64,000 nucleotides of DNA, from the IMG/VR virus record IMGVR_UViG_3300031539_000007, positions 1 through 64,000 of that record; one strand, given 5' to 3'. Position 1 is the first letter of the stretch; every line of letters starts with the position of its first letter. Under the pieces are notes generated by a model. That model was not told the DNA's origin. It was given only the letters and a program-made list of their open reading frames with translations, and did no database searches. Source of the stretch: a virus. A program made the translations under genes and the position numbers. Shown piece by piece: positions 10,688 to 37,169 of the stretch.

Positions 10688-11086
10688 TTATGCCGCGAAT
10701 CCCACTGCGTAGATCAGCCCCGTGAATAACCCGCTGAAATCTATCGCCCAGAAATCCCCTGGAGCGCCGCTCGCATTCCACGAGCCAAACTGCGCGTCCC
10801 CATACCAGTAGTCAGTCATGTCCGTGCGGTCTGGATAGATGGCGACGTTGCTGGTCGTGGTCGCAACGGCGTATATCAGGTCGAATATCGCGTTGCTCGC
10901 GGTGTCTACCAACGCCGAACCACTGAATGTAGCGCCGTATGCGCCTACGCGCTGGATTTTCGCCTCAGTACCCATCACGGATTCCTCGGCGGTGTCACGG
11001 TCAACGGATAGTTCGAGCGACGTGATGAAGTTCAGTAGAACGCCATCGACATAAAGTGCGCCCTGTAAGCCGGTTAATTGAGCCAT
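10688..11086 (-). CDS. Major tail tube protein
   Basis: 132 aa, strong AAAGGAG RBS, upstream of the chaperone; beta-rich tube-like sequence (LELSVDRDTAEES...FSGSAL...YWYGDA). Confidence 0.8.
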   Translation of the reverse strand: MAQLTGLQGALYVDGVLLNFITSLELSVDRDTAEESVMGTEAKIQRVGAYGATFSGSALVDTASNAIFDLIYAVATTTSNVAIYPDRTDMTDYWYGDAQFGSWNASGAPGDFWAIDFSGLFTGLIYAVGFAA

Positions 11087-11541: not shown

Positions 11542-12360
11542 TCACCTCTCCTCGCATGGCTCAAACCCTAACATGTCGATTGCCTTCTGCGGACTGATAA
11601 GCGAGTCTGCGTCTGACACAACCCTCAGTGGAACGCCATGATATTCTTGCGCACGGAACTCGTAGACGTTGACGCCATTAGGAACATACTTATCTATAAT
11701 ATTGAACGGCTCGTACCAGAACTCGCGCTCTGACTCAACGGCCAACCTGATGGCTTGTGCGCAATACTCAGGGTTGCAGTTCGCCCAGAAGCAGCCTCGG
11801 CGATAGTCTGAGTGCGGCACGCTTCTCCAGTCGAAGTCGCCTGGGTATTGTTGCCGCTTGTAGTTCGCCGGGGCAAGACGTAGCGCAACGGTTTGCATCA
11901 TTTTGTTTGTCCCGTAGTATGCGAGTATCTGTTCTGCCATTACCTTAGAGAACGGGTAATGCTTGATGCCACCACGGGAACGCCCCTGCGCCATATTGGG
12001 GTGCTTCTCGTCAATGGGTAGGTAGTCGGGGAACAACATCCCGTCAATGTCGCATCCGTAATATGCCGTGGAACTAGAATATACCATGCGCTTGACGCCC
12101 GCATTGTATGCGGCTTCTGCAACATTGAGTGTGCCCAGCACATTGACATCAAAGAAGTCTCTGAACGGCCTGGCGTTTGGGTGCGGTATGGCGGCGAGAT
12201 GCACTGCCACATCAACGCTACTCATCTTTGAGTAGAGCTTGTCTGTGTCAAGAATGTCGTCGCCGTTTGTGATGTCGTAGTTTATAATCTCGTGTTCTGC
12301 AAGCTCTGCAACTGCCAGCCTGCCAATTTTCCCGCTACCGCCAGTTACTAAGATTCGCAT
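11542..12360 (-). CDS. NAD-dependent nucleotide-sugar epimerase/dehydratase (extended SDR)
   Basis: ILVTGGSGKIG, VHLAA, NVLGTLNV, YSSS and YPFSK (YxxxK) motifs. Confidence 0.92.
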   Translation of the reverse strand: MRILVTGGSGKIGRLAVAELAEHEIINYDITNGDDILDTDKLYSKMSSVDVAVHLAAIPHPNARPFRDFFDVNVLGTLNVAEAAYNAGVKRMVYSSSTAYYGCDIDGMLFPDYLPIDEKHPNMAQGRSRGGIKHYPFSKVMAEQILAYYGTNKMMQTVALRLAPANYKRQQYPGDFDWRSVPHSDYRRGCFWANCNPEYCAQAIRLAVESEREFWYEPFNIIDKYVPNGVNVYEFRAQEYHGVPLRVVSDADSLISPQKAIDMLGFEPCEER

Positions 12361-13382
12361 TGTTTCATAACCTTTTTCGCTCGCTCAATATACGAATGCG
12401 GTTTAACCATCTCCCGCAGCGTATCGCAGTAATCGGCGCGCCGTTCTGGTTTGTCAACCCAGTAGCGTAGCAACTCGGTTAGCTCTTCTGGCGATGTGAA
12501 TGTCGGCACCAAGTCGCCAAACATTTCCTCGATCTCTTCGCGGTATTCAGAGATCAGGAACCCGCCACACGCTAACGCTTCATAGACTCGTGGCGATGCG
12601 CTTTCGGACTCAGGGATGCGCATCGCGCCCTCGTAGTCAATGGATGTACGGTTCAGATTCAAGCATATCTTCGCGCCGTTGTATAATAGCGCAGCTTGGG
12701 AGTTGGCGATACTGGTGTCTTTGTAATACTTCGCCAGAACATGATCGTGGTCGATGGGGTAATGTCCGTACATCACGAAGTCGAGGTCGCCCCAGTCAAC
12801 CTGCTCTAGCATCTCTACGCGCTCAGGGAACCCGCTGCCAATGAACACAACGTCGTGGCGCATATTCTGTGGCACGAATACAGGGAAGTGTGTCTCGGTA
12901 CTATAGGCTGTAGGGAGATATGGAAGTTCTAGCTTGCGCGCCACGGCCCGCTCGTTTGTATACACAAAATCGTTGTAATCAGTCAGGAATCCGAGCGTCC
13001 TGTCTTGGTATGGCGACTCCGTACCGATCACCACAGATTTCATGCCGGTTACGTGCAACCTTCTGATCCATTCCCATGCCTTCCTGTGGAGGGCCGTACC
13101 ATCAATTACAATGAGAATGTCAGGGTTTGATTTCATCACGTTGAGAATAACATCCATCGACGCCGATATGATTACATCTTCGTCCTCGTATGTTGCGTTA
13201 TAGTCCCCTTCGATTAGCCCCTTGAATCTGTAACTCTCGTTCCAGTAGCGGTATACTTGGTGATACGGGATTTCGTCAACCACATAGCCAAGTGTTCTGA
13301 GTGCGTAGACATATCCTTTCGCCACATCAAAATTCGAGACAGCAGTTGGGGGGAAGGCCATACAGATTTTCGGTTTTTGCAT
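12348..13382 (-). CDS. GT-B glycosyltransferase, CgeB / Glyco_trans_1_2-like
   Basis: DVVFIGS..PER, LYNGAKICLN and SPRVYEALACGGFLISE motifs. Confidence 0.88.
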   Translation of the reverse strand: MQKPKICMAFPPTAVSNFDVAKGYVYALRTLGYVVDEIPYHQVYRYWNESYRFKGLIEGDYNATYEDEDVIISASMDVILNVMKSNPDILIVIDGTALHRKAWEWIRRLHVTGMKSVVIGTESPYQDRTLGFLTDYNDFVYTNERAVARKLELPYLPTAYSTETHFPVFVPQNMRHDVVFIGSGFPERVEMLEQVDWGDLDFVMYGHYPIDHDHVLAKYYKDTSIANSQAALLYNGAKICLNLNRTSIDYEGAMRIPESESASPRVYEALACGGFLISEYREEIEEMFGDLVPTFTSPEELTELLRYWVDKPERRADYCDTLREMVKPHSYIERAKKVMKQCES

Positions 13383-13384
13383 TT

Positions 13385-14182
13385 CTATTCCTTGCTGGAT
13401 AACATGTACTGTGGCTCGTATGGTGTGCCATACTCAGGACAGAAGCCCCACTTATCCATAAACACCCAGCGGTTGTGACTGCGCTCTTTCAACCACTGCA
13501 TAAAATCTCCCTTGCTTTTTTGGCGTCTCTCGACAGCCCTGTCGCCGTGGTTTTGGTGAACTACACGAGTGTCTAGGTTGAAAACAAATTTACAGCCAGC
13601 GAGGTGGGCTTGGTATGCGAAATCACAATCCTCAAATCCCCAGCACGAATTATACCGCTCGTCGTGTCTCAGCGTTTTAGCCACACTCATCGGCAGGCTG
13701 AAGCTGTGCCCGCTCCCATATCGCCAGCGAGAATGTATTGGCAGATGGCGCGGATTCGAGATGCGCCCCCAGAACTTGTCTTCTTCATCTAGTTCGCCAC
13801 TTGTCAATGCCCCCTGCACACGGTTGAGCACGTACCACGGCCCGTCATCACGCGCGTGCCGCTGGATGTGCGACTCAATCCAGTTCGGTGGGTAGAGCAC
13901 GTCATCCTGTGTGCCGATGTAGACGCTGCCGGTAGCAGCATCCAGCCCCATATTGTTTGCCGAGGCTCTTGCGGGGTAGGCTTCGCGCAGGGGTTCTTGG
14001 ATGATAATCATCTCGAATGGGGGCGCTTGTGTTGCTAGGAAGGCACGGGTCTCATCGCCAGGATAGCCAACGACGATCAGAAATTCAAAGTCGTTGTTGG
14101 TTTGTTCTAGGAGCGTGGCGAAAGACTTCTTGAAATAAGGTAGCTTGGCGTCTACAGCGACATCAATGACGGATGGCCTCAT
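13385..14182 (-). CDS. GT-A glycosyltransferase (family 2-like)
   Basis: ASANNMGL, TQDD (DxD-like), DERYNSCWGFEDCDF and VVHQNH motifs. Confidence 0.85.
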   Translation of the reverse strand: MRPSVIDVAVDAKLPYFKKSFATLLEQTNNDFEFLIVVGYPGDETRAFLATQAPPFEMIIIQEPLREAYPARASANNMGLDAATGSVYIGTQDDVLYPPNWIESHIQRHARDDGPWYVLNRVQGALTSGELDEEDKFWGRISNPRHLPIHSRWRYGSGHSFSLPMSVAKTLRHDERYNSCWGFEDCDFAYQAHLAGCKFVFNLDTRVVHQNHGDRAVERRQKSKGDFMQWLKERSHNRWVFMDKWGFCPEYGTPYEPQYMLSSKE

Positions 14183-14412
14183 AATCCATCCGCTCCTGGT
14201 GGTTTCACAACACCTGCTATTTCTTCGACGTGTACAATCTGCCCTGTGTCACCAGTGTAATCTGACAGTAACCCATAAAGTCTTCCGCGATTGGCTATGT
14301 AATGTTCGGCACAATCGCCCGAATATGCTCTCATCACAGAAAACGCATACTTCGTTTGGTTGTTGCCGCTTAAAACAGTAACCAGTAGATTTATTCTGCT
14401 TGAGTCAAACAA
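14179..14412 (-). CDS. Hypothetical protein
   Basis: 77 aa, overlaps both neighbours in the operon. Confidence 0.55.
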   Translation of the reverse strand: MFDSSRINLLVTVLSGNNQTKYAFSVMRAYSGDCAEHYIANRGRLYGLLSDYTGDTGQIVHVEEIAGVVKPPGADGL

Positions 14413-15041
14413 TCGTAGTCCCCTTTCATCAAAGCGAGCGCAACTTTCAGCGCTTCCTTGATGTCTGTATTTCTAAGCTGGGTGCTCGCGTCAAGTACAT
14501 ACGGTACTGACGCATATTCTACCGTTCTCCCTGCTTTGATGGCAAGCCCTAGTAGTTCCATGTTTGTGGCGTGCCCATTGCTTTTAAGATACGGTAATAG
14601 CCCGATGACGCTCTTGAGATTGTAGGTGCGGTACCCATGGGTGGCGTCGCGAATCAACTCATGTGTGAGTAGAGATAGCGTCGCCGCTCCTGCAAGAGAG
14701 AGTATAGCACGAATCCCCAACTTGTCAAATTCCCTTGCTCGTACCAGGATGTCTGCGCTAAACTCAATGTCGAGATACTGCGGGTTGCATGTGCCAACGT
14801 CCATCACCGTCGCGTGGGTATAGCCAAGGCACGACGCAATATTCAGCCCTGCTTTTAGGGCATTGCCATACCCGCGTTTGTCTTTTGAGTAATCCACATG
14901 CTGTGCGAACCATTGCGCCATGCCAACGCTGCCGTCGTCGCCGTCTATCACGCAAACAATTTGCTCGCCGACAATAGAGCGCAACAGTTTTTCGAGATTG
15001 GCGCGCTCTTTGTAACTCAGAACAACTACGCACTTATTCAT
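14391..15041 (-). CDS. GT-A glycosyltransferase, polyprenol-phosphate mannose synthase (DPM1)-like
   Basis: SYKERANL, IDGDDGS, RGYGNALKAG, VMDVG and IRDATHGYR motifs. Confidence 0.8.
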   Translation of the reverse strand: MNKCVVVLSYKERANLEKLLRSIVGEQIVCVIDGDDGSVGMAQWFAQHVDYSKDKRGYGNALKAGLNIASCLGYTHATVMDVGTCNPQYLDIEFSADILVRAREFDKLGIRAILSLAGAATLSLLTHELIRDATHGYRTYNLKSVIGLLPYLKSNGHATNMELLGLAIKAGRTVEYASVPYVLDASTQLRNTDIKEALKVALALMKGDYDCLTQAE

Positions 15042-18036: not shown

Positions 18037-18344
18037 TAGCGTTGCCTCACTTTGATTGTAATTGTGCGTTGGTCTGTACGGCTTGCAGTTGTGACAATTT
18101 CACACACAACATCATAGTCGTTAGGCGCATAGCCTCCAGATAGCCACGCAATAACACTGGTGTTTGTGTTTGCCGCCGCGTAACTGGCGACAGTAATCCC
18201 GGCTGGCGCTGTCACTGTGCAAGAACTAATCGTCTCTCCAGTCGCAAGCCAGTCGCTCGCCCCCGTCACGTTTGTAAGTGCCTTCCAGTCCCATGTGTAG
18301 TCCAGCACTGCGCCAGGGTCTTTGTAGAACCATTTATCTGCCAT
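18036..18344 (-). CDS. Virion fibre-adaptor-like small structural protein
   Basis: 102 aa with KDPGAVLDYTWDW...WLSGG...Y.V.C.I.T...RTDQRT signature of a widespread phage family. Confidence 0.7.
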   Translation of the reverse strand: MADKWFYKDPGAVLDYTWDWKALTNVTGASDWLATGETISSCTVTAPAGITVASYAAANTNTSVIAWLSGGYAPNDYDVVCEIVTTASRTDQRTITIKVRQR

Positions 18345-20004
18345 TCAATACCTCACTAAATCGACCTTCTGTGACGCCCCACCCAGGGACGCTACCCGAT
18401 TCTGCCCATCCGCGTGTGTAACGCTGGTTGCGGAATTCTTCGGGATGCCAGCGCGTCTTCGTCAAGTTCCCGCTGTGCCGGATGTCAACGTTTGGCTGCT
18501 CGGACATCCATACCTCTGACTTGTAATCATCTACTCGTTCGGCGCGATTGTGTGTCCCTGGCTCGAACCCCATTCTACGGGTGAACCCATTCTCTTCAAC
18601 AATCGCCACTCGTTTTCTGTAATGCTCTAATAGCAGGTCTCTGTAAGCGCATAGCCCTGAAGTAGAAGAGGCGTAGTGGAAAAGCGCGTGCCCTGTTTCG
18701 GAGTCAACCTTCCAAGAGTTCTGGTTGTAATAGAACAAGTCGCTCTTCTCTGGAACGAAGTCGAAGTGCGACGGGTGATAGAGCACATCGTGCTCCGCGA
18801 AGAAAAGAATGTCTGCGCCAGACGCCTCGACGCCCGCAAGAATCTGCTTGAACATCGTCAGATAGCCGCGCTCGGCATCAATAACAATATTCCTATCGCC
18901 GAAGTCTAGCGGTTCCAGCGAGACGCTTATGATTGGCAACCCACTCTTTAGCAACTGCTTTTGGCACGCCAGCATAATACCAGCGTCTAGCCGATTGTCA
19001 GTATAATATACTATACCCTTTTTTGCACTATTTGAAACCTTAACCACGCCGCCCTCTTTCGCTTTCAAGCCAGTCAAGTCTTCGTCAGTCCACCCGCGCA
19101 CCGGCCAGAATTTCTCTACAAGCCAAGACAGTGGGTGTATTTGCTTGTCCCACTTGTCATTGAAGAATAAGTCGTGAGCTGCCTTCTTAGCGTGTGCAAC
19201 TTGGTTCCCTGAGATTGGATATGGGAATCCGAAGTCCTTGCCCTGAGTCCTGAACATGTGCGCATACCAGGTCTTGTGGTTCACCATCACCGCCCCGCCG
19301 GACAGCCAAAACTTCGTTGCGACTTCTATGCCTTGCGATCCCCAGCTCCCAAAGCTCTCGTCGCATACGTTTAGCTCAAAGTATTTATCGCGCGTCAGCA
19401 TAAAGCACGAGCCTTGCAGACTCATCGTTGGGGTGATGTCGCCCTTGCCTTCTGGCCGCTTAGAGAACTCTTTGAAATACTGGAAATGCGGCTCTGGGTC
19501 AAAGCAATACGATACGCTTTGCGGGCTTGGTTTCCCAATCCACTTCATATCGCGCCGCGCATCACCACCGCACTTAGGGCATACCGGGCGCAGAATGTCT
19601 CCGCCTGGGGTTGGCCCCTGATAGGTGCGCCACTCGCAGCTATCGCAAGCCCAATCAAATGCGTGCAGGTTGCGCATTATCGGAACCATCACCCAATCAT
19701 CGCGCATCTCTGCCAGCATCTTAACATCGAAGCCCTCGTCGAACGCGCAGTGGGCGTCACACTTCATCAAGTATTTTGATTGGGCAATGCGCGCCGCTTC
19801 GTTGGTCGCCGCTCTCTGTCCAACACTTTCTGGATGATAGATGAGACTTACTCGCGAGCTATCGTTGACTGGTGGTTCTGCCCACTCACCGTCTAGCACA
19901 GCAATAATATCGGTGTCGCCCCTGATATTCACAAGGATGTCTTCGATTGTGCGAGCCAGGAACATTTCGTTGCGCGCAGGAATCAAGATGGTTAGGTCTG
20001 GCAT
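18334..20004 (-). CDS. Two-domain glycosyltransferase: ppGalNAc-T (GT27)-like N-terminal domain plus a second GT-A-like domain
   Basis: IPARNE, KCDAHC and WGSQGIEVATKFWLSGG...WYAHMFR; C-terminal KGIVYYTDN...FFAEHDVLYHPSHF. Confidence 0.85.
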   Translation of the reverse strand: MPDLTILIPARNEMFLARTIEDILVNIRGDTDIIAVLDGEWAEPPVNDSSRVSLIYHPESVGQRAATNEAARIAQSKYLMKCDAHCAFDEGFDVKMLAEMRDDWVMVPIMRNLHAFDWACDSCEWRTYQGPTPGGDILRPVCPKCGGDARRDMKWIGKPSPQSVSYCFDPEPHFQYFKEFSKRPEGKGDITPTMSLQGSCFMLTRDKYFELNVCDESFGSWGSQGIEVATKFWLSGGAVMVNHKTWYAHMFRTQGKDFGFPYPISGNQVAHAKKAAHDLFFNDKWDKQIHPLSWLVEKFWPVRGWTDEDLTGLKAKEGGVVKVSNSAKKGIVYYTDNRLDAGIMLACQKQLLKSGLPIISVSLEPLDFGDRNIVIDAERGYLTMFKQILAGVEASGADILFFAEHDVLYHPSHFDFVPEKSDLFYYNQNSWKVDSETGHALFHYASSTSGLCAYRDLLLEHYRKRVAIVEENGFTRRMGFEPGTHNRAERVDDYKSEVWMSEQPNVDIRHSGNLTKTRWHPEEFRNQRYTRGWAESGSVPGWGVTEGRFSEVLNGR

Positions 20005-20594
20005 TAGTCCTGTTCCTCTAACGGATCAACAAAGCTAGGCGCTCTAATCCAGAACCAGGTCGGGGTTCTCTCGTCGGTCAAGAACCATTTGTTAATACCG
20101 TGTTCACGAGTGTACGTATCAACAGCGGGGACAATTCCACCTCTCCGAAAACGGTAATAGTCATGCCCTGACACAACCCCGCCATACCTGACCTTCTTTG
20201 ACCACCAAATGATGTCGGTCATCACGAAATCGAAGGTGTGGTCTCCGTCTATGTACACAAAGTCCAGGGACTCATCAGGTATATCCATCACCGCCTCGAA
20301 GCTGGTCTCGCGAATGACGGTCGCGTTGTGCGGGGCTAGTCGTCTTTGAGTAGATTGATAACGTGATTCGCCTCTGAGTTTCCAGTACCACGGGTCTACA
20401 CATAATAGATGCAAGTCTGGAATAACCTTGAACATATACTCAGAGAAACGCCCACGGTCAACTCCGATCTCTGCGCCCTTAGTCAATCCGTACTCGCCAA
20501 AATATTGTACGAGTCGCTTACGTGTCAATGTGCGAATTCGCACTGGTGATATTTGTTGGGCCTGTTCGTACCACTTGTCCAGTAGTTCTTTCAC
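20004..20594 (-). CDS. Class I SAM-dependent methyltransferase (Methyltransf_24-like), probably a glycan O-methyltransferase
   Basis: GAEIGVDRG, CVDPW, DFVYIDGDH and GGVVSGHDY motifs. Confidence 0.9.
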   Translation of the reverse strand: MKELLDKWYEQAQQISPVRIRTLTRKRLVQYFGEYGLTKGAEIGVDRGRFSEYMFKVIPDLHLLCVDPWYWKLRGESRYQSTQRRLAPHNATVIRETSFEAVMDIPDESLDFVYIDGDHTFDFVMTDIIWWSKKVRYGGVVSGHDYYRFRRGGIVPAVDTYTREHGINKWFLTDERTPTWFWIRAPSFVDPLEEQD

Positions 20595-22207
20595 AGTAGT
20601 TCCTTGTATAGCGGGGCGACGTTATCAATGTGGTAGTCCTCCGCTCTGTCAATGAGTCTTTGCGCATCGAACCCGTCGCGGAGTCTCGCGATAACATCCA
20701 CAAGCTCTGCTATTGTTCTTGTGGGCCAATAGTAGCCATCAACTTCTTGGTAAGCTATTTCTGGATAGCCAACTGTTGGGATGCCGAATGACATTGCGTT
20801 GACGATCTTGAGCGGATTCTTTAGCGGCCTGTCCTGCATCCGCCATACAATCTGCACGTCAATGTCTTTATAGAACTCAACGATCTCATCTGGATTTCTA
20901 AAATGGCGCAACCATCTAAACTCGATACCCATATCCGCCAAAGCTTTCTCTAGCTCTTCGGCATCACACTGAATCGCCCCTTGCCCACCGACAACACCAG
21001 CAACCTTTATCTCGTCGCGTGTGCGGATAATGCGTTCAAAATTACAATGGTGCTGTGGTATAAAAACTACATCGTCTCTTCCAAGCTGCTGTTTCAGGTA
21101 TTCGTATCCTGTCTGGCTTGATGCAATCACGCCGCATTCTGGGTGCTCTTTAAGCCACGGTATTCTGCGTGGTTCATCTAGTACATCGAGATAGTGCTTC
21201 CCTGGCAGGGCGATGTCGTCAGGCTGTTGTTTAACCCAAATGTGTATATCGAAATCGTAGCCCCATCCAGTCTGTGGTTTTAGTCTCGCCATAAAGCGCT
21301 CTGCCATTTGCCTGCCGCGAATCTGTCCGCTTCCACCACGGCGACGATGAAACACAAAGCGCACCGCTTCTTCGCCCCACGTTGGCACAGGCCAGAATCT
21401 ATTGATTAACCAGCGGATGTCTCTGTCTTGTTTGCCCCACAGTTTGCCGTCCATCCAGCGGTTAGAGTATTCTGCGCCTTTGTCTAATACGGAGTGCGCG
21501 AGAGGCCACCCGCGCCCGTACTTGCGCCCCTTGTGAAGATGAGCATACCACGTGTTCTTGTTCCTGACAACGCGACCGCCAGACAGCCAGCACTTCAACC
21601 CTATTTCTTGGAACTCGAAGCAGAAGTGCCCGTAGTTCACATCGTCAAGCAACTCCAGTTCGTGGAAGTAGTCTCTGTGCATAAACCAGCACGAGCCTTG
21701 CGCGCTCATCAAATCGTCTATGAGTACATCTTTAAGTGTAGGGTCGTTCTGCTTCTCGCGCCATTCTCTACCGTGCAGGCTCGGCCCGCCGAAATCGTTC
21801 TTGTCTGACGGGGAACACAGGAACATATACTCGATGGGCTTCTTTTGTTTTGGTTGCCAGTTTTCTGCGTCCAGGCTGTAGCGCGTTGGGACAGCAACCC
21901 AGTTCGATTCCAGGTCTGCGATTAGCTTTACGTCGAATCCTTCATCGAACATACAATGTGCATCGCACTTCATTATATACTTTCCTCTGGAAATTGCAAC
22001 TCCGGCGTTAATTGCGCCGCGCATTCCTCGCGGTGTCGTGAAGTGTATATAATGTACGCGCTTGTCTTCAATAATCTCGTCGGGCCAGTACCCTTCAAGA
22101 ACCACAACGACCTCGATGTCACCCCCCGCCTTGGCGAGAATGTCTTTAACCGTGGGGTTAAGGAATTGCTCGTTTCTGGCTGGGATGACTACGCTTGTAA
22201 CTGTCAT
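20591..22207 (-). CDS. Two-domain glycosyltransferase: ppGalNAc-T (GT27)-like N-terminal domain plus a GT-B (GT4-like) domain
   Basis: IPARNE, KCDAHC and [14 protein letters not shown]...WYAHLHK; C-terminal [17 protein letters not shown]. Confidence 0.85.
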
Positions 22208-25200
22208 GACGGATCGCTCCTTTCTATTGGTGCTACTCTTGTCTCTATAGCTATTGTGTATACCCTAGATTCGGAATCTATTGGTGCTACTCTTGTCTCC
22301 GCCGGTACTGAGTAAGTCCGTTCCTCTGTTGGCTCCGTTGGCACGGACGGGCTTGGAGATGCCGAAGAAGACGCAGACCCACTGGCGCTCGCGGACGCCG
22401 ACTCTGACGGGCTTGGACTGCGGCTTGGCGAAGATGACGGGCTTCTGCTAGGACTTGACGATGCGCTTGATGACGCGCTGGCACTTGGGCTTAACGAAAG
22501 GCTCTCGGAGGCCGACTCACTGGCGCTCGCGCTTGACGATGGCGATGGCGATGCTGACGCAGAAGCCGACTCAGAGCCGGAGGCCGACGCCGACTCAGAC
22601 GCCGACTTTGACGCGCTGGCACTTGCGCTTTCTGAAAATCCGGCGCTTGGCGACGGGCTGGCTGATGCGCTGGCGCTCCCTGACGCACTGGCAGACTGGC
22701 TCTCTGATGCCGAAGGGGAAAGCGACGCAGACGGCGACAGTGACGCGCTGGCACTGGAGGATGGCGAAGTGCTCGCGGATTCACTCGCGCTGGCCGACGC
22801 GCTCCTGCTGGCGCTACTTGACGCGCTCTCCGACACCGACGCGGACGACGACGGGGATGGGCTGGCCGATGCGCTGGCGCTCTCAGAAGAACTGGCAGAA
22901 CTTGATTTTGAGGCCGATGCACTGGCAGATATAGACGCCGATGCCGACGCTGACTCAGAAATAGACTCGCTGGCGCTAGAGCTTGCTGAGGGGCTTTGGC
23001 TGGCGGATGTGCTTGCTGATTCCGAAGAAGACTCCGAAGCTGATGTGGATGCGCTCGCGCTGGCGCTTCCCGAAACCCCCGCGCTTGGCGAGGGTGATGC
23101 GGACGCGCTAACTGATTCACTGGCGCTGGCCGACTGACTCTCAGACGCCGATGGCGAAATAGACGCTGACGGAGAAATGCTTGCCGACGTGCTCGCCGAC
23201 TCTGACACACTCTCCGAGGCGCTGGCGCTGGTTGAGGCGCTGGCTGACGGGGATAGCGATGCGCTTCCGCTGGCGCTCGCGCTTATAGATTCAGAAGATG
23301 ATGGCGATTGGCTGGCAGACTCGCTCGCCGATGCCGAAGCACTGGCCGAAGCTGACTCACTCGCTGATTTCGATGCTGACTCTGATACAGACTCGCTGGC
23401 ACTAGCGCTAGAAGAAGGACTCTGGCTGGCTGATTCTGATACGGACTCTGACGCCGACGCTGAAGCGCTGGTCGAGGCGCTGACTGACGCCGACTCCGAA
23501 AAGCCGACGCTCGGAGATGGCGAAGCACTGGCTGAAACAGATTCGCTGGCCGATGCACTCGCGCTCTCTGAGGCTGACGGACTCTGGCTGGCCGATCCAC
23601 TAACGCTGGCGCTCGCTGACTCCGATGCACTAAAACTTGCCGACGTGCTTGCGGATGGCGATTGGCTTGCACTCTCGCTCGCGCTGGCGCTGACACTCTC
23701 TGATGCCGATGGCGATGGTGATGCAGAGGCGCTTGCCGATTCGCTCGCTGATTCCGACCCCGACACGCTGGCGCTCGTTGACGCTGACGGAGATTGTGAG
23801 GCGGATACGCTCTCGCTAGATGATGGGCTTTGACTAGCGCTCTCTGATGCCGACGCGCTAACAGATTCGGACACTGATTCGCTACCGCTGGCACTCGCCG
23901 ATGGCGACAAACTTGCCGAGGGGCTGGCTGATTCGCTGGCACTTTTCGACGCCGATGGCGATAACGACGCACTTGCCGAGGCAGACGCACTAATGCTCTC
24001 CGAAGCGGAGGGCGACGGGGACGCTGATGCGCTGGCGCTTTCTGATACGCTCGCGCTTGACGACGGACTTATGCTCGCGCTTTTTGAGGCTGACCCACTA
24101 GCACTCTCGCTGGCCGATGAAGACACGCTCTCACTGGCTGACGGCGACAGGCTTGCAGACTCGCTGGCACTGGCGCTGGCGCTCTGAGATGCGGATGCGC
24201 TGGCGCTTTTCGATGCGCTGGAGCTCGCCGATCCCGAAGCACTCTCTGAAACTGAGGGGCTGGCCGAGGCTGAGGTTGATGGGCTTAAACTTTGACTTGG
24301 CGATAAACTGGCTGATGGCGAGAGTGAGGGAGAACTGCTCGCCGACGCCGAAATTGATTCAGACGCCGAACTACTCGCTGACCCTGAGACGCTTCCACTG
24401 GCCGATGGCGAGAGCGAGGGCGAGCCGCTTGCCGATGGAGACGGGGAAGCCGAGCCGCTTACTGAGGCGGAGAGCGATTCGCTGGCACTGCTGCTGGCTG
24501 ATGGCGAGAGTGACGCCGACGCACTCCCAATAGTGCGGACTTCTACATCATTGACGTACTGCACTTCGCCAGCGGATGGCGATGGGGAAGCCGAACTACT
24601 CGCTGAAGCCGATACGGACTCGGAAGCCGAGCTGCTGGAACTGGGCGACAAACTCGCCGATGGCGAAAGTGAGGCTGACCCGCTGGCGCTGGGGCTTAAA
24701 CTGGCCGATGGCGAAAGTGAAGACGATTCGCTGGAACTGGGTGACAAACTGGCCGATGGCGAAAGTGAAGGAGACCCGCTGGAACTGGGAGAAAGTGAAG
24801 ACGATTCGCTGGCGCTGGGGCTTAAACTTAACGATTCTGAGGCTGACCCGCTGATGGATGGGGACAATGAGGCCGAACTGCTGGCTGAGGCTGAGGCTGA
24901 CTCCGATGTGGACGCGCTGGCGCTGGGTGATAAGCTTGCCGAACTACTTGCTGAAGCTGATGCCGACTCAGACGCACTGCCGCTGACGCCCTCCGCAAAC
25001 GTAATCGTATTGGCGAACTCTACCCACGGGTTATAAGCAGCAGTATCAGTATTGTTTTCGCCAAGATCGGTTCCAGAGTCGTCACCGATGCCAATCGCTC
25101 CCCGGTGGCGCTGTGAGGACGGGCTGGGATCGCCACCATACCCGATCTCAATTACAATCCTATCGTTCGCATTGGCTTCAACAGAGGATGTGGTAACTGA

Positions 25201-25602
25201 AAACTGTCTGTTGGTCAGCGTACCTACAGTAAGTGCTGCGTCATCCCTGGCTACGGCTAGAACCACCCCCGTAACGCTAGTCCCATCATTTGAAACAACC
25301 CGCACGCCAATTGTAGAGAACAGATTTGCGCCCGTGGCGTATTCGTACATGCGCATCTGGAACTTGAGCGTCTGCGCACTAAGCGTCTGTGCCGTGATTG
25401 GGTCAGATACATACTGTGCAAAACAGATGTCTTGATCTGCGGAACTTCCATCACTGCTGTTGGTGATTTGCGTCGTCGCAGACGCTATCTTGGCGATTAC
25501 TGCCTGGTAGCGTACTAGCGCATAGGAAGCTTCCCAGTCGCCAGATACGGCAGGACTAATCGCCGCCGCGCCAGAGGATGGAAGATAAAAACGAGTCGCC
25601 AT
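22204..25602 (-). CDS. Serine-rich repeat virion protein (1132 aa)
   Basis: Likely start MATRFYLP at 25602 (TAATG overlap with the upstream stop); about 200 aa globular N-domain, then roughly 880 aa of S-X alternation, then a short C-tail with ETRVAPI twice. Confidence 0.88.
22223..22299. repeat. 23-bp direct repeat (TCTATTGGTGCTACTCTTGTCTC x2, 54-bp period) encoding ETRVAPI
   Basis: Copies at 22223-22245 and 22277-22299. Confidence 0.9.
22350..24985 (-). repeat. Low-complexity (Ser-X)n coding repeat
   Basis: [11 protein letters not shown]-type alternation; GCCGATGGCGAAAGTGA recurs at 24656, 24704 and 24752 (48-bp period). Confidence 0.95.
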
Positions 25603-27224
25603 TACAATGTGCTGGTGATTCTTATCTGAGCATAGCCAGCCGATACAAAGCTGCCAATGTAGTTTCCCCACTCCGCGACAGAGCAAGCCCCTGGCGTTGC
25701 GCCGGTGCGATAATCCAGATCAATCGTATCGCCAGCAACATAGACGTTGTATGTTATCTCAATGTTTACCGCTCCGGTTTCCACGATCTCTGAAATCATG
25801 TACTCGCTGGTTTCTAGCGCAACTCGTTCTATGTCTACCTCGCCGGGGTTTTCAATTGTCCCGGTGCCAATCCAATTCCCGCTAAAATCTCTAACGTTGG
25901 CCTCGGCGACATCTGTGTCATGGCCCCAAACGACATCGGTTGAGACTGCCGCCGACGGAGAAGCGGAGGGACTGGCGCTGGCGCTGGACGAAGGGGAAAG
26001 CGAGCTTGAACTGCTGGCTGATTCCGAAGCTGATCTGCTGGCGCTTGGGGATAATGAGGCACTGCCAGAAGCGCTCGCGCTCGCGCTCCCCGATGCTGAT
26101 GGCGATAGGCTTGCCGACCCCGAAGCTGATTGGCTGGCACTTTCCGATGCCGACGCCGACGCGCTCTCCGAGGTTGATGGAGATTGCGAGGCGCTGACGC
26201 TCTCTGACGCAGATGGCGACTGTGACGCGCTCTCGGAAATACTCTCGGATGCAGACTCGCTAATTGACTCTGATGCGCTTGAAGACGCGGATGGCGATAG
26301 GCTCCCACTGGCGCTGGCAGACTCCGATGCTGACCCGCTCGCGCTTGGTGATAACGATGCTGATTCAGAAGCGGATTGGCTGGCGCTCGCGGAGGCTGAG
26401 GGCGACTGTGATGCACTTCCTGAAGCAGACTTGCTCGCAGAACTAGACGCGCTAGGGCTTGGTGACGCAGAAGATGAAGCTGATGGAGAAAGCGACACTG
26501 ACTCGCTTGCGCTTGGGCTTGAACTCCCCGACGCGCTGGATGAACCAGCCGCGCCAGCCAGCCAAAACCCCGTCGCTGGAACTGGATACCATACCTTCGG
26601 CGGATGATCTGCCCACGTCGGTGTGTTGTAGGCCGTCATCGTGTACCCACCGAACAAATCCTGGTCAGTGCGTAGTAAGGGCAAGTAAAAAACGAGAGCA
26701 TCAGGTCTAATTTGCCATGGGGGGATACCTGTGGCTAACATTGCTACTTGTGCGTCACTCAGCGCAATATCCCAGATTGCGGCTTCTGCGATTCTCCCGG
26801 ACATGTATCCTTCGGGGGCTGTCCCACCAACACGTCCGATTTGTAGCTGTGAGATACCTGTCGGGGCAGAATTAGACGAATCGGTGCCTTTATATCCACC
26901 GTTTTTGTAGACAGCACGGCTGTCTTCAGCCGCCCATACACCGCAGGCATGATGCCATGCATCTGTCCCAAACGTTTCGGGATAGGTTGTAGCGCGGGGG
27001 TAACCAGTCGCATACGTTACTGCTTCGATGCAGCCGTCTTCGTCGCCAGCCAGCGCCAGACGGAATGAATTGGCGCTTGTTGCAGGGTTGTCTAATGTCA
27101 TCAGTGCTTGATACGAGTCTGCGCTATCCGAGTGATACCAGCATGCCATAGTGAGCGGTACAGCTATGACTGGAGCAGAACCAGATAAATATTGGCTACT
27201 GGCATTATCAAACAGCCTTGCCAT
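25602..27224 (-). CDS. LamG / ConA-like lectin domain plus Ser-rich repeat protein (540 aa)
   Basis: TMACW, WHHACGV and [21 protein letters not shown] are LamG-like motifs; about 200 aa S-X tract; about 115 aa C-domain. Confidence 0.85.
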
Positions 27225-31608: not shown

Positions 31609-32580
31609 TTAGTCTACGATGTCGCTGAAGAACACGCCGAGATTGGCGTTGATTTGCTTGTTGTCGTAGTACGTGTTGACTTCAATGTACTCGCCACGCT
31701 TCTCGTCGTTGCGGTACTTGCGCACTGCCTGCATCTCGTTGCCGACTCCCGCGATGCGCCACACGAATGTGTAGCCCGCCGATGTCTGCCAGATACTTGG
31801 AGACGTGGGGGTGTAGAGCAACAGAGCGTCATCGTCCCAGTTGGAAGTGTAAGCCACCGATGCTTCGGCAACACCTTCCGCCGTGGCGGTGTACAGGTTT
31901 GCTCCAACCAACAGGCTGTCAACGTCGAACAACGCCTTCAGCAAGTCTTCGGAAGCAATCCCGCGCTCCGTGTACTTAATGCGGTCAAGCACATCTGGGT
32001 GATCCATCAACCTGTCGCGGGTCATATTGCCCAGGACAAGCTTGTTGGCATAGCGCGCAACGTAGTTGAAGACCGTGCGCTTATATTTGCGGATGTCCTC
32101 AATGGGGGTGGATGTCCCATAGTCAGACCACTTGGTAACTGTCGTTCCGCCAGTCACGTCAGTAGTCCACTTGGACAGCGCCCAGAAGTTGCTGACGAAG
32201 TTGCGCTCTCGCTGAATCCTCAACGCCTGGTCAACCAACAGCGCGCCATCCCTATCAGAGTTGAACGGGTTGTCTTCGTTGACGCGCCGCTCGTCAGAGA
32301 TAAAGTGCCTGCCGTGATACAGCTTGCACAGGTATGTCATCGAGGTTGTGACCTTGTATCCGATCTCAGGGGCAACGTCGCCCTCTGCGCCGGGAGTGCT
32401 CAGGTCATTGCGGAAAAAGTGCGACTGATCGACCTGGGGGATAATGTCGGTTTGTTTATCGACAAGCACCACCGGGAAGATTTGGTCGGCAATATAGTAT
32501 TCATTTGTCGTACCCACCAGAACATTGGTGAGCATTTTGTCAACGTGGACATCACTTGCTAGGGGCATTCTCATAGCCAT
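31609..32580 (-). CDS. Major capsid protein (lambda gpE / Mu gpT-like, HK97 fold)
   Basis: 323 aa; HVDKMLTNV, YIADQIFPVVLV, KWSDYGTSTPIEDI and HPDVLDRIKY motifs; follows scaffold and decoration genes. Confidence 0.9.
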   Translation of the reverse strand: MAMRMPLASDVHVDKMLTNVLVGTTNEYYIADQIFPVVLVDKQTDIIPQVDQSHFFRNDLSTPGAEGDVAPEIGYKVTTSMTYLCKLYHGRHFISDERRVNEDNPFNSDRDGALLVDQALRIQRERNFVSNFWALSKWTTDVTGGTTVTKWSDYGTSTPIEDIRKYKRTVFNYVARYANKLVLGNMTRDRLMDHPDVLDRIKYTERGIASEDLLKALFDVDSLLVGANLYTATAEGVAEASVAYTSNWDDDALLLYTPTSPSIWQTSAGYTFVWRIAGVGNEMQAVRKYRNDEKRGEYIEVNTYYDNKQINANLGVFFSDIVD

Positions 32581-32594
32581 TTATTCATATCTCC

Positions 32595-32978
32595 TTATGC
32601 GCCTCGCCCACCGGGAGCCACACTCATCTCTCCGATCTCGTTAGTGTCCCCACCGACAATGCAAACGCCGACGAGATAGGTTGTCGTGTCTGTACCAGGT
32701 GTCTGCGTGACGGCGCGCCCGCTGGTATCAGTCGTTAAACTTGCCCCAGCCGCGACGGTATCCCCAAAAATAACCTTGGAATGTCCTGCCACCCGCACGC
32801 TAACCGCAGCGCCGGTCGTCCCGCCAACCTGGATAACGCCCAGTAGCTTTTCCGTAACCGCGTCCGCCATATCCACCGTGTTATCTGTTGAGGACGCCGT
32901 ACCAAGATACCACTGCTTGGCACTCAGGTCGTCGAGGGCCAACATCGAAATATCGAACCCTTCAAATTGTTTTGCCAT
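32595..32978 (-). CDS. Capsid decoration / cement protein
   Basis: 127 aa between scaffold and capsid; VAAGASLTTDTSGRAV motif. Confidence 0.75.
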   Translation of the reverse strand: MAKQFEGFDISMLALDDLSAKQWYLGTASSTDNTVDMADAVTEKLLGVIQVGGTTGAAVSVRVAGHSKVIFGDTVAAGASLTTDTSGRAVTQTPGTDTTTYLVGVCIVGGDTNEIGEMSVAPGGRGA

Positions 32979-35050: not shown

Positions 35051-35136
35051 CTCAAAAACAGGGCCAGTAGGATTGTGAGTGTATATGTCCCGAAGAATAG
35101 TAACACTGCTAATGTTTGTTTCTTGTCGGAGGCCAT
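35047..35136 (-). CDS. 29-aa single-TM miniprotein
   Basis: MASDKKQTLAVLLFFGTYTLTILLALFLR; start overlaps the portal stop (TGATG), stop overlaps the HAD start (ATGA). Confidence 0.6.
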   Translation of the reverse strand: MASDKKQTLAVLLFFGTYTLTILLALFLR

Positions 35137-37169
35137 CAGAACACACGCCCGCGATACTTGTATTGATAGTAGCATCTGTCGTTGTGCTTGCAGTCGCGCT
35201 CGCCAATCGGAATCATATTGCGCGATTCTGTCCACCCTAGCCCCGTTAGCGCCTCGCACGTGGGGCACACGCGGTCGTCGCGCGCGCTCACATTGCGTAC
35301 CAGTAAGTCTTCGCCAGAGAGCATCCCCTGCGCATAATCTACGGACAGCACGTTCTTGGGATACAGAGAGTCAATCATGCGCTTGGCCCTAACCGCCGTG
35401 CCATGATTAGCGAAGAGCTTGTAAATCATATTTGTATAACCAGCAGTGCGGAAACGCAGCGCCCCCACAGCGCCAAATACGGCGAGTGCAAAGAGCTTGT
35501 CTGAGAGCGTGGAGTCATGTGCTTCTCTAGCCGCCGCCAGCGCCGCTTCGCGCACAGATGGCAATAAGCTATTATCAATGTAGCCAGCATGTTCAAGCAG
35601 CATATCGCTGATGACTTTTAGAGATTCGATGTCTGGCTTGTCACCAGTGTGCTTTAGCCACGCGGCGAAGACATCATCGCTCAATTGGCTTTTTAGTGCT
35701 CTGGAGAGGCGTGACATAAACATGTCTACGATGTCTGCGTAGTCGTCCTCGTCGGCTGCATACAGTGATGCGGGCAACTCTTTCAGTTCGCGGTCATATA
35801 CTCGTATAAGTCTAAGCCCCGCTTGGTCTGCAAATTCGTCAGCGGCCTGTGCCGTTTGCGCGTCTGCGTATTCTGACGCAGCGGTTATTTGTTGACCGGC
35901 GGGCATTGTTAGTCCTTCTTCGCCCTCCGGCGTACCGAGATTCTGTGCAGGGAGGTTGGGCTTCAGGAGCATACCTGACTCTTTAGCCTGTTGCAAGCCA
36001 ACGATTTGGCGAACTTGATTCTCAAGGCCGAGTGAGTATGTTAGTCCACCGGCGTTGAGCAGGTTACTGACAAGCTCTGCAAAATCGCCAACGTCGATCT
36101 TGCTGATCTTAGAGAACAATAGCTGCGGGTAGCCAGAGCCTTCTTGGAAAGAGTTCAGATCGAACAGGCGCGGGATGGCGTGGCGGTTGAATATCTCGCC
36201 GATGCGTTTCATATACGTGTTGAGAGCGATGAGATACATGGCAGATTTATCTCTAATCATTGCCAGGCTCCCGCCCTCTGAAATCATAATGAAGTCCATC
36301 AATAGGTTGCGGGCCATATCTACGCGATGGCGGGTGATGACCGCGCTTATATCGAGCGCCGGGCCTTCGCTGGGCATTGCGTATTTGAAGTCCCAGCCGA
36401 ACGGCAACGTGATCCCCATATCGTCGCCGACCTTAATGTTACGCACGATAAGCTTCGCTTGCGTAAGCGCTTCGGAATCCTCGGTTGTGTCCATGTTCTC
36501 TGGCAGAGTAACGACGGGCGTACCGCTCATGCGCTCGCAGATTATGGCCTCAAGGATTTCTAGGTTGTTGGCATAGAACCAGGATTTGTATGCCCCCATA
36601 AAAATGCTAATACCCTCCACATTGTTCTTCCCCATGCCAGTTGTGGAGAAGTGCAGCAGTTTCTCGATAGGTATGAATACTTGTTTGCTATCGAAGTTCT
36701 GCCACATCCCTTTCAGGCCGTAATTGTCGTCCCACTCCCAATGATCGAGTGTCACCGGGTGACGAGGCGGGAGCTTCTTCCAGTGGACGCGCCCGTCCTC
36801 CTTCTTCTCGTAGACGATCTCTAAATCCATCCAGCCATACGCCAGCATGAGGATGATGTCGCTCATAATATCGGTGAACGACTTGCTCATACCGTGTAGA
36901 TTTTGTTCTAGGAAAGCTGCTTTCTCTACATCTACTGGCTCTTTACCAGCAGGGCGCACTGTAACTTCGACGTTCTGCATAAACAGGGAGGTGGTTTGCA
37001 GCATCGCCGAGCCAGTTGGGTCAACCTGGCTCATCTCGTCGTATGTCTTGACTTTGCGGTCGCTGGTGCGTAGCTCGGTAATCCAGCTAGAGACAATCGC
37101 ACCGTTCCACTCGTCTACGCCGGGTACACCCAATTCGCCGAGCGGCACTTTAACTTTAGCGTCAGCCAT
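35136..37169 (-). CDS. Portal protein (Mu gp29 / DUF935-like) fused to a MuF / SPP1 gp7-like head morphogenesis domain
   Basis: LAYGWMDLEIVY, IPIEKLLHF and FNRHAIPRLFDLN (portal); C-terminal DDRVCPTC...IPIGERDCKHNDRC (MuF). Confidence 0.85.
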   Translation of the reverse strand: MADAKVKVPLGELGVPGVDEWNGAIVSSWITELRTSDRKVKTYDEMSQVDPTGSAMLQTTSLFMQNVEVTVRPAGKEPVDVEKAAFLEQNLHGMSKSFTDIMSDIILMLAYGWMDLEIVYEKKEDGRVHWKKLPPRHPVTLDHWEWDDNYGLKGMWQNFDSKQVFIPIEKLLHFSTTGMGKNNVEGISIFMGAYKSWFYANNLEILEAIICERMSGTPVVTLPENMDTTEDSEALTQAKLIVRNIKVGDDMGITLPFGWDFKYAMPSEGPALDISAVITRHRVDMARNLLMDFIMISEGGSLAMIRDKSAMYLIALNTYMKRIGEIFNRHAIPRLFDLNSFQEGSGYPQLLFSKISKIDVGDFAELVSNLLNAGGLTYSLGLENQVRQIVGLQQAKESGMLLKPNLPAQNLGTPEGEEGLTMPAGQQITAASEYADAQTAQAADEFADQAGLRLIRVYDRELKELPASLYAADEDDYADIVDMFMSRLSRALKSQLSDDVFAAWLKHTGDKPDIESLKVISDMLLEHAGYIDNSLLPSVREAALAAAREAHDSTLSDKLFALAVFGAVGALRFRTAGYTNMIYKLFANHGTAVRAKRMIDSLYPKNVLSVDYAQGMLSGEDLLVRNVSARDDRVCPTCEALTGLGWTESRNMIPIGERDCKHNDRCYYQYKYRGRVF

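Follow-up and report, generated by a model that had tools for sequence, protein, structure and literature searches.

The serine-rich repeat proteins (SRRPs) of Gram-positive bacteria, including GspB, Fap1, PsrP, and SraP, have serine residues that alternate with mostly Ala, Val, Thr, Glu, or Leu over hundreds of residues (PMC6973325). Their genes adjoin 2–10 glycosyltransferase (GT) genes, the O-glycosylation is cytoplasmic, and the array is interpreted as a long stalk (PMC6973325). The subject of this study is a gene with a comparable array in a tailed phage, IMG/VR virus record IMGVR_UViG_3300031539_000007. The first 64 kb of this linear 113,043-bp record (completeness rating of 82%) were analyzed and are referred to here as the window. 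The gene (22204–25602, minus strand) encodes a protein of 1132 amino acids (aa) in which Ser alternates with other residues (Ser-X). It lies in the region from the major capsid gene to the tail tube gene, and these two genes, like those for the portal, scaffold, and tape measure, are on the minus strand. As judged from the sequence, the 1132-aa protein is probably an O-glycosylated, mucin-like accessory virion fiber located on the head or neck. With slightly less confidence, we favor the wider view that tailed phages, many of them apparently phages of ultra-small Patescibacteria, build viral mucins, i.e., filaments hundreds of nm long whose Ser-X arrays are O-glycosylated by soluble relatives of the GT27 family and whose docking domains are interchangeable.

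The phage locus resembles the SRRP loci in having an alternating Ser array beside several GTs, and glycosylation in the cytoplasm is likewise proposed for the phage. SRRPs have an aSec signal peptide of ~90 aa and an AST domain, whereas the phage protein starts directly in a folded jelly-roll without either. SRRPs carry a C-terminal LPXTG anchor, while the phage protein ends with ...APIERSDPS and has no LPXTG. SRRPs are primed by GtfA of the GT-B type, whereas the candidate primer of the phage is a GT-A protein similar to polypeptide GalNAc-transferases (ppGalNAc-Ts). The phage gene also differs by lying in a structural module, and Pro is common at its X positions. The DUF1975 domain of GtfA/GtfB (PF09318) had no match in the 113-kb record, which is rated 82% complete, while the control genome of B. 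subtilis was positive. SecA_DEAD (PF07517) also had no match in the record; SecY2 and the Asp proteins were not searched. Since no signal peptide, LPXTG, GtfA/B domain, or SecA was found, the Ser-X system, which from its sequence would work like SRRPs, is not a member of that family.

The ppGalNAc-T (GT27) family is known mainly from eukaryotes. One GT of the phage matches these enzymes of eukaryotic mucin-type O-glycosylation by sequence, profile, and fold, and the DxH and Gal/GalNAc-T motif residues are conserved. The acceptor also resembles eukaryotic mucins in being a very long, hydroxyl-rich, Pro-containing tandem sequence. However, GT27 enzymes have a lectin domain and an anchor, while the phage enzyme is predicted to be soluble, is fused to a second GT-like domain, and has a Cys-rich insert. 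The Thr-rich PTS repeats of mucins also contrast with the phage acceptor, which has only Ser in a strict alternating register.

In mycobacteriophages, phage GTs modify virion proteins of the same phage (Freeman et al. 2023, as cited in PMC12619734). The acceptors are C-terminal extensions of the capsid and tail tube proteins, and the glycans reportedly shield the particle (PMC12619734). The mycobacteriophage systems share with the present locus the location of phage-encoded GTs within or beside structural genes. The two systems differ when compared by acceptor sites: the phage studied here has a plain capsid and tail tube, without a Ser-X tract in either protein, and two dedicated accessory proteins with arrays of 197 and 880 aa. 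The 1132-aa protein also resembles modular phage fibers, because its N-terminal 200 aa are conserved in proteins that continue with repeats, LamG, FN3, or propeller-like modules and, going by the names of fold matches in BFVD, with collagen or S74-chaperone modules. It differs from them in its extension, as a Ser-X run of more than 23 aa was found in none of the 150 best representatives of the N-domain family, and no solved structure matches the profile of this family by sequence. No description of phage Ser-X arrays or of phage GT27-like enzymes was found in the literature searched.

The strict Ser-X array covers 880 aa (aa 207–1086), and Ser occupies 430 of its 433 register positions, with Gly at the other three and Thr at none. 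This agrees with the preliminary description of the locus, in which Ser had been placed at every second residue over roughly this length; the coordinates stated there were all confirmed, and the regularity far exceeds chance. The array consists of runs at aa 207–343, 360–698, 702–840, 844–986, and 990–1086. The X residues are mainly Ala (180), followed by Pro (63), Glu (52), Ser (30), Leu (25), Val (21), and Gly (18), and the rarer ones are Gln (11), Thr (10), Ile (9), Lys (6), Phe (3), and Arg (3); Asp, Asn, His, Cys, Met, Trp, and Tyr do not occur at the X positions of the 880-aa array. The non-repeat island noticed earlier was located at aa 344–359 and is the only true break of the register. 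The SPS(A/V)G(F/V)S punctuation described earlier is indeed present at three sites of the form SPSPS-[AV]-G-[FV]-S, which are 142 and 146 aa apart, but these sites are single Ser-to-Gly substitutions that keep the register and are not breaks of it. SPSPS itself occurs 11 times with irregular spacing. The units of aa 702–840 and 844–986 are the sole pair resembling old, diverged duplicates. A strong long-range period was not found (the best autocorrelation of the X string among 120 tested lags was z 3.7 at a lag of 100 aa) and the DNA autocorrelation of the array is flat, so that the higher-order structure previously attributed to the array is weak. A silk-like crystalline β-sheet of (Ser-Ala)n was considered as the conformation of the array and rejected, because Pro (15%) and Glu (12%) break the array every few residues.

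The Ser-X repeat exists at the protein level only, which points to selection on the protein and not on the DNA. All six Ser codons are used (176 AGY and 254 TCN, interleaved), as are 23 of the 24 possible Ser-Ala hexamers, in line with the diversified codons noted before. AGY and TCN codons cannot be interconverted by a single base change, and their mixture therefore indicates that Ser has long been selected at each position. Within the 5-kb two-gene tract (22204–27224), exact DNA repeats reach at most 25 bp, and only 17 of 4985 distinct 20-mers recur. The 25-bp repeat is part of a 48-bp tandem, and the 48-bp period that had been recognized in the preliminary description is real. Because repetition at the DNA level is nearly absent, assembly collapse is very unlikely, and neither misassembly nor recent expansion accounts for the array as a whole. 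The little DNA homology also leaves little scope for recombination to alter the array length. The earlier suggestion that the length is tuned by recombination is therefore unsupported; the array of a syntenic relative (L010) is of similar length, 896 vs 880 aa.

From the sequence, the main functional clue, which the preliminary description omits, is a pair of ppGalNAc-T-like GTs that are coupled to the Ser-X gene by overlaps and co-occur with Ser-X arrays. The TAA of an upstream gene for a second Ser-X protein (25602–27224) overlaps the ATG of the 1132-aa gene, whose TGA in turn overlaps the ATG of the adjacent GT gene (ATGA). These belong to a chain of five genes with overlaps of 1–4 nt each, in the order LamG-Ser-X gene, 1132-aa gene, GT (20591–22207, hereafter the proximal GT), methyltransferase, and GT (18334–20004, hereafter the distal GT). 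Of these TRANSFERASES, the distal GT matches 13 PDB sequences in a phmmer search (E 9.5e-6 to 5e-4). Twelve of these entries bear the name polypeptide GalNAc-transferase; the remaining one (8uhv), labelled glycosyl transferase, has a title that gives it as Toxoplasma GalNAc-T3. A profile of its 17-member family matches the ppGalNAc-Ts with an E of 9e-9. The DxH motif (Asp83-Ala84-His85-Cys86) is invariant in the 17 homologues and aligns with DAHC of GalNAc-T1. In the Gal/GalNAc-T motif, Trp221, Gly222, Gly225, Glu227, Trp233, Ser235, Gly236, Gly237, His249, Phe251, and Arg252 are invariant. The motif has a variant form, with WGSQGIE and W.SGG in comparison with WGGENxE...W.CGG...H.FR, of which H.FR is kept.

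The AlphaFold2 (AF2) model of the distal GT has a pLDDT of 86.2. In a Foldseek search with this model, the matches listed first, through rank 29, consist entirely of ppGalNAc-Ts (E 4e-14 to 1e-12), with about 320–357 aligned columns, an identity of 16–19%, and a TM-score of only 0.33–0.41 because the first domain alone aligns. Pfam gives Glycos_transf_2 only; the model opens with the strand of residues 4–10 of a GT-A fold, and residues 329–556 form a second α/β domain. Neither a ricin-type lectin domain nor an N-terminal membrane anchor is present in the distal GT according to Pfam and the AF2 model. For this reason, the enzyme is regarded as a soluble relative of the ppGalNAc-Ts and not as a strict family member, and transfer of GalNAc from UDP-GalNAc to Ser/Thr may be its activity. 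The proximal GT is a paralogue of the distal GT, with 33% identity over 310 aa (E 5e-52) in the first ~300 residues. A Cys-rich insert of ~26 aa at about aa 118–147 of the distal GT, in which Cys120, Cys142, and Cys145 are invariant in the 17 homologues, resembles a zinc ribbon and is missing from the proximal GT.

Loci were fetched via the two GTs from viral and metagenome-assembled genome (MAG) or genome contigs, and their six frames were scanned for strict Ser-X runs of ≥51 aa. Such runs are present in 55 of the 79 non-redundant GT loci (38 of 49 viral and 17 of 30 MAG loci), and all are on the strand of the GT. The array per locus has a median of 424 aa and a maximum of 1835 aa, and the array lengths over other phages range from 37 to 1835 aa. 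Control locus groups fetched via the N-domain or the capsid protein had no Ser-X runs (0/7; Fisher p 5e-4). The Ser-X proteins of the GT loci have N-terminal parts unrelated to the N-domain of the window protein, and several of them end 2–4 aa after the array. The MAG contigs with GT and Ser-X pairs are mostly assigned to Patescibacteria, with some bins labelled Gammaproteobacteria, and contigs of 240–455 kb are included. In L082 (a 455-kb contig of a Parcubacteria MAG), L084, and L085, a GT, a methyltransferase, and a GT accompany a Ser-X protein of 907–2323 aa; the set of L082 adjoins genes of cell-surface-like proteins.

The arrays and the enzymes also vary together among close relatives. 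The closest relative by the capsid protein (G001; 54% identity) is syntenic, has a length of 119 kb, and is rated 91% complete; neither such a GT nor a Ser-X run of ≥21 aa is present anywhere in its record. The window genes at about 18.0–29.4 kb (from g28725 to a gp77-like adaptor, the last gene of the stretch) have no match in G001. As this stretch includes both Ser-X genes, both GT27-like GTs, and the methyltransferase, the arrays and enzymes are present or absent together. In G001 (L067 13585–13989), a g29490-like gene is followed by one 134-aa open reading frame (ORF) and then by a g17035-like gene. The record with the closest N-domain (G003; 67%) has a non-Ser-X extension behind it, and neither the GT nor Ser-X arrays occur in the whole record. 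Both Ser-X proteins and the GTs are retained in the syntenic L010. In the longer of its two Ser-X proteins (1101 aa), the N-domain differs from that of the window protein; the SPSPSAGFS punctuation is shared, and a 16-aa island occupies a comparable position. A single β-prone island of 16–17 aa inside the array was observed in four Ser-X proteins (window, L010, L025, and L036; one of the islands reads VPATTTVKVNFWGIILS), and those of the window (24526–24573) and L010 (about 3670–3717) have V-x-D-V-x-x-R in common.

Asp-Ser and Asn-Ser are hot spots of succinimide formation. At the 15,742 X positions of 80 Ser-X ORFs in L009–L097, Asp and Asn account for 0.08% and 0.26%, respectively, and Glu is enriched, in comparison with 6.6% Asp and 5.9% Asn in the non-repeat parts of the same proteins. 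Because each X precedes a Ser and the Asp-Ser and Asn-Ser bonds are chemically labile, this depletion fits a long-lived, exposed chain that avoids them. The commonest X residue of the whole set is Pro (32.5%), and the window protein is of an Ala-rich type (42% Ala and 15% Pro).

The N-terminal domain (N-domain) was assigned to a large viral family by an exhaustive HMMER search, which gave 2462 cluster representatives at E ≤ 1e-3, of which 154 reached E ≤ 1e-30. Residues 1–200 of the query are covered in most cases, the domain is N-terminal in the hit in most of the matches listed, and near-invariant residues include Tyr6, Trp23, and Gly154. The N-terminal residues encoded from the ATG at 25602 agree with the family consensus, and this ATG is therefore taken as the true start. 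A longer ORF from a TTG, reaching to 25686, was rejected because its extension merely overlaps the upstream gene. No name or Pfam domain was found for the family, whose members are labelled hypothetical proteins in the source databases; in the ESM Atlas, the nearest clusters all lack a name and are viral. Pfam and PHROGs gave no match for the 1132-aa protein; applied to the N-terminal regions of ten further Ser-X proteins, they yielded a single weak match, to a minor tail protein. Family members are between about 210 and more than 1600 aa long, with stand-alone forms of 210–240 aa as the commonest, and the regions C-terminal to the domain differ widely, consisting of repeats or globular modules. 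Among 40 long members, LamG is present in 4 and FN3 in one. In the closest viral relative of the domain (L098; 67% identity), it is followed by short repeats and a propeller-like globular domain. In a minority of the family (P0001, P0048, P0075, P0077, and others), the domain is internal, for example at residues 245–447 of a 1068-aa protein, or is present in two or three tandem copies.

A structure prediction of the N-terminal ~200 aa, as proposed in the preliminary description, gave a confident β jelly-roll (AF2 with a 35-sequence alignment; pLDDT 96.2, pTM 0.93, and pLDDT 97 for residues 1–10). The best solved fold matches are the C-terminal jelly-rolls of enzymes of the CocE and X-Pro dipeptidyl peptidase family (Z 9.3–11.6, 152–162 aligned residues, and root-mean-square deviation of 2.9–3.5), followed by carbohydrate-binding modules and trimeric viral or TNF-like jelly-rolls (Z 6–7). 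Among predicted viral structures (BFVD), the fold is found in uncultured-phage proteins named collagen-repeat or S74-chaperone. The homologue in Streptomyces phage Muntaha is encoded between the capsid gene and the head-to-tail adaptor, and that of phage ct7ZZ929 after the capsid gene. When the genes upstream of N-domain genes were pooled from 45 viral loci, they encoded head proteins in some and tape-measure proteins in at least eight. From its sequence relatives, the N-domain is best described as a general virion module that is not bound to one site.

From these observations, a route to the proposed fiber can be outlined. The Ser-X protein would be made in the host cytoplasm together with its enzymes. 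The soluble ppGalNAc-T-like domains would start dense O-glycans on the register serines, and the second GT domains, further GTs, the methyltransferase, and the sugar epimerase would extend and tailor these glycans. The product would be a stiff, extended, protease-resistant, and hydrophilic mucin-like bottlebrush. At an extension of about 0.25–0.35 nm per residue, as may be expected of mucin domains in general, its length would be roughly 200–300 nm. The N-terminal jelly-roll (aa 1–206), or possibly the gp77-like adaptor, would dock the fiber to the head or neck, and the short β-prone C-terminal tail (C-tail) may clasp or dock the far end. Anchoring by the N-terminus is probable on the basis of sequence comparison: the N-domain is likelier to be an anchor than a tip, because it is N-terminal in most members and is followed by very varied C-terminal modules or stands alone, and because several GT-linked Ser-X proteins end right after the array. 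The preliminary description had viewed the array as an extended stalk that presents the N-domain far from the virion; the stalk is plausible, but the architecture of the N-domain family suggests that the polarity is probably the reverse. Beyond joint synthesis, we infer the glycosylation, the sugar, the virion attachment, the polarity, and the role (shielding or adhesion) from the gene overlaps, enzyme similarity, and co-occurrence.

Several observations weigh against a glycosylated fiber anchored by its N-domain. The link to glycosylation consists of association and enzyme similarity only. The distal GT is without lectin domain and anchor, its identity to the ppGalNAc-Ts is 16–19%, and its acceptor could differ. 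A Ser-X run is lacking in 24 of the 79 GT loci, many of these 24 being short contig fragments, and the control set is small (7 locus groups). With regard to the polarity, the N-domain is replaced in the syntenic L010, its fold is similar to that of carbohydrate-binding modules, the 1132-aa protein ends with a 46-aa C-tail that contains mini-repeats, and N-domain genes follow either head or tape-measure genes, as described above.

These points bear on the explanations that compete with such a fiber. If the C-tail were the anchor, the Ser-X stalk, glycosylated or not, would hold the N-terminal jelly-roll out as a binding domain, much as the binding region of bacterial serine-rich repeat adhesins is presented by their SRR2 stalk, and we consider this rather unlikely while leaving it an appreciable share of belief. 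The similarity of the N-domain to carbohydrate-binding modules (Z 6–7) and to the galactose-binding-like jelly-roll of the CocE family (Z 9–11.6) would suit a binding role, its swap between the window phage and L010 is of a kind often seen in receptor-binding parts, and many Ser-X proteins end with conserved-looking short β-prone C-tails. The long array of SRRPs is believed to extend the reach of the binding region (PMC6973325). This polarity is nevertheless difficult to reconcile with a family in which the domain is N-terminal in most members, the C-terminal modules are varied (propeller-like in L098, LamG, and FN3), and the stand-alone forms dominate, or with the GT-linked Ser-X proteins that stop 2–4 aa past the array and hence have no C-terminal anchor. 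An array that is an unmodified disordered spacer or entropic bristle, with the GTs serving DNA, the host envelope polysaccharide, or another protein, is unlikely. Such a spacer leaves unexplained the same-strand association of Ser-X and GT in 55 of 79 loci and their joint absence in G001 and G003, the peptide-acting GalNAc-transferases as the nearest relatives of the enzyme, and the maintenance of Ser at 430 of 433 positions via both the AGY and TCN codon classes. In its favor, phage GTs are known to modify DNA and the host serotype (PMC12619734), and the glycoside hydrolase and the sugar epimerase in the cluster would suit polysaccharide work.

The Ser-X proteins might also remain outside the virion as intracellular or released glycoproteins, serving as decoy, matrix, or host-surface modifier. 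This is very unlikely, although the cassette is dispensable in G001 and related GT and Ser-X pairs are found in large Patescibacteria MAG contigs. The genes belong to the head-to-tail structural module and share its strand; the N-domain family is viral, with annotated homologues among head genes; and a signal peptide is absent, residues 1–10 being part of the folded domain. The gp77-like fiber-tail adaptor within the same stretch that is without match in G001 also argues for the virion. An assembly artefact or a non-coding low-complexity tract is scarcely credible. Repeats can be mis-assembled, and the other reading frames of the Ser-X tract are also open for 120–240 codons. However, exact repeats are short and rare in the tract, the frame is continuous with a conserved and well-folding N-domain, and dozens of independent contigs carry similar arrays beside the same enzymes.

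If the Ser-X proteins are O-glycosylated virion fibers, as we favor, bacterial SRRPs and eukaryotic mucins would be joined by a third Ser-array glycoprotein system that is independent of both and is made by enzymes of a kind considered characteristic of mucin synthesis in animals and protists. GT27-like peptide glycosylation would be placed in the prokaryotic virosphere, and the range of mucin-type O-glycosylation would be widened. With glycosylated arrays, about 11 kb of the phage would be spent on a glycoprotein coat or hairs. The (Ser-X)n sequence and the two GTs would provide a simple, soluble, and bacterially expressible enzyme-acceptor pair for glyco-engineering, and testable questions would arise on how sugar-coated filaments influence the adsorption and stability of the phage and its escape from being bound by the host or the environment. 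Placement of the N-domain on the virion would annotate thousands of metagenomic proteins.

The features of the locus are listed in Table 1. Within the whole 113-kb record, Ser-X runs occur only in the 1132-aa gene and in the upstream gene. The 540-aa product of the latter has an unbroken 197-aa Ser-X array (aa 228–424; nt 25953–26543) and a C-terminal domain of about 100 aa that is conserved in L010 and L025. The gp77-like protein is a candidate docking adaptor for the Ser-X fibers; similar proteins occur in GT loci L033 and L051. The cluster beyond it also includes a glycoside hydrolase, and the tail tube gene comes after the sugar genes. The region from the capsid gene to the tail tube gene contains at least five GT genes. 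No tRNA was found in the 64-kb window, and a promoter and terminator scan gave a result not above chance.

Table 1 Coordinates of features in the window. For the 1132-aa gene, the range includes the stop codon.
Feature	Position	Strand	Remarks
Portal	35136–37169	−	
Scaffold	32595–32978	−	
Major capsid	31609–32580	−	
Second Ser-X protein, 540 aa	25602–27224	−	LamG-like N-domain (PF13385, E 2.4e-16)
Ser-X gene, 1132 aa	22204–25602	−	
N-terminal domain, aa 1–206	24985–25602	−	β jelly-roll of large unnamed viral family; family search, AF2 model, fold matches
Ser-X block 1, aa 207–343	24574–24984	−	69 register Ser
48-bp tandem	24634–24789		3.2 copies, 79% matches; 16-aa period inside block 1; only notable DNA-level repeat
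Island, aa 344–359	24526–24573	−	16 aa, β-prone; register shift by one
Ser-X block 2, aa 360–1086	22345–24525	−	727-aa unbroken register with three Ser-to-Gly positions
Punctuation V-G-F, aa 699–701	23500–23508	−	After SPSPS
Punctuation A-G-V, aa 841–843	23074–23082	−	After SPSPS
Punctuation A-G-F, aa 987–989	22636–22644	−	After SPSPS
C-terminal tail, 46 aa	22207–22344	−	Three [ES][ET]R[VT]-type mini-repeats (type ETRVAPI)
Proximal GT	20591–22207	−	ppGalNAc-T-like GT-A N-domain (GT2) and GT1_4-like C-domain
Methyltransferase	20004–20594	−	Methyltransf_24; with the GT pair in most related loci
Distal GT	18334–20004	−	GT2; closest solved relatives ppGalNAc-Ts (GT27)
gp77-like fiber-tail adaptor, 102 aa	18036–18344	−	PF23148 (podophage GP4 gp77), E 3.2e-20
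Further sugar genes	11542–15041	−	
GT2	14391–15041	−	Weak match
GT2	13385–14182	−	
Glyco_trans_1_2, 344 aa	12348–13382	−	
Sugar epimerase	11542–12360	−	NAD-dependent
Tail tube	10688–11086	−	
Tape measure	5171–9835	−	

Short β-prone C-tails of 25–60 aa end many Ser-X arrays (L033, L028, L024, L009, L010, L032, and L034). They contain mini-repeats or a common G(I/H)H..IFGG..V ending, and some are clearly interrelated. Such tails may act as a clasp, an anchor, or a recognition signal. Among the further sugar genes, the 344-aa Glyco_trans_1_2 protein, encoded upstream of the tail tube gene, is conserved at 37% identity in the cassette-less relative (L067 16522–17544), and by this comparison its role is probably independent of the Ser-X arrays.

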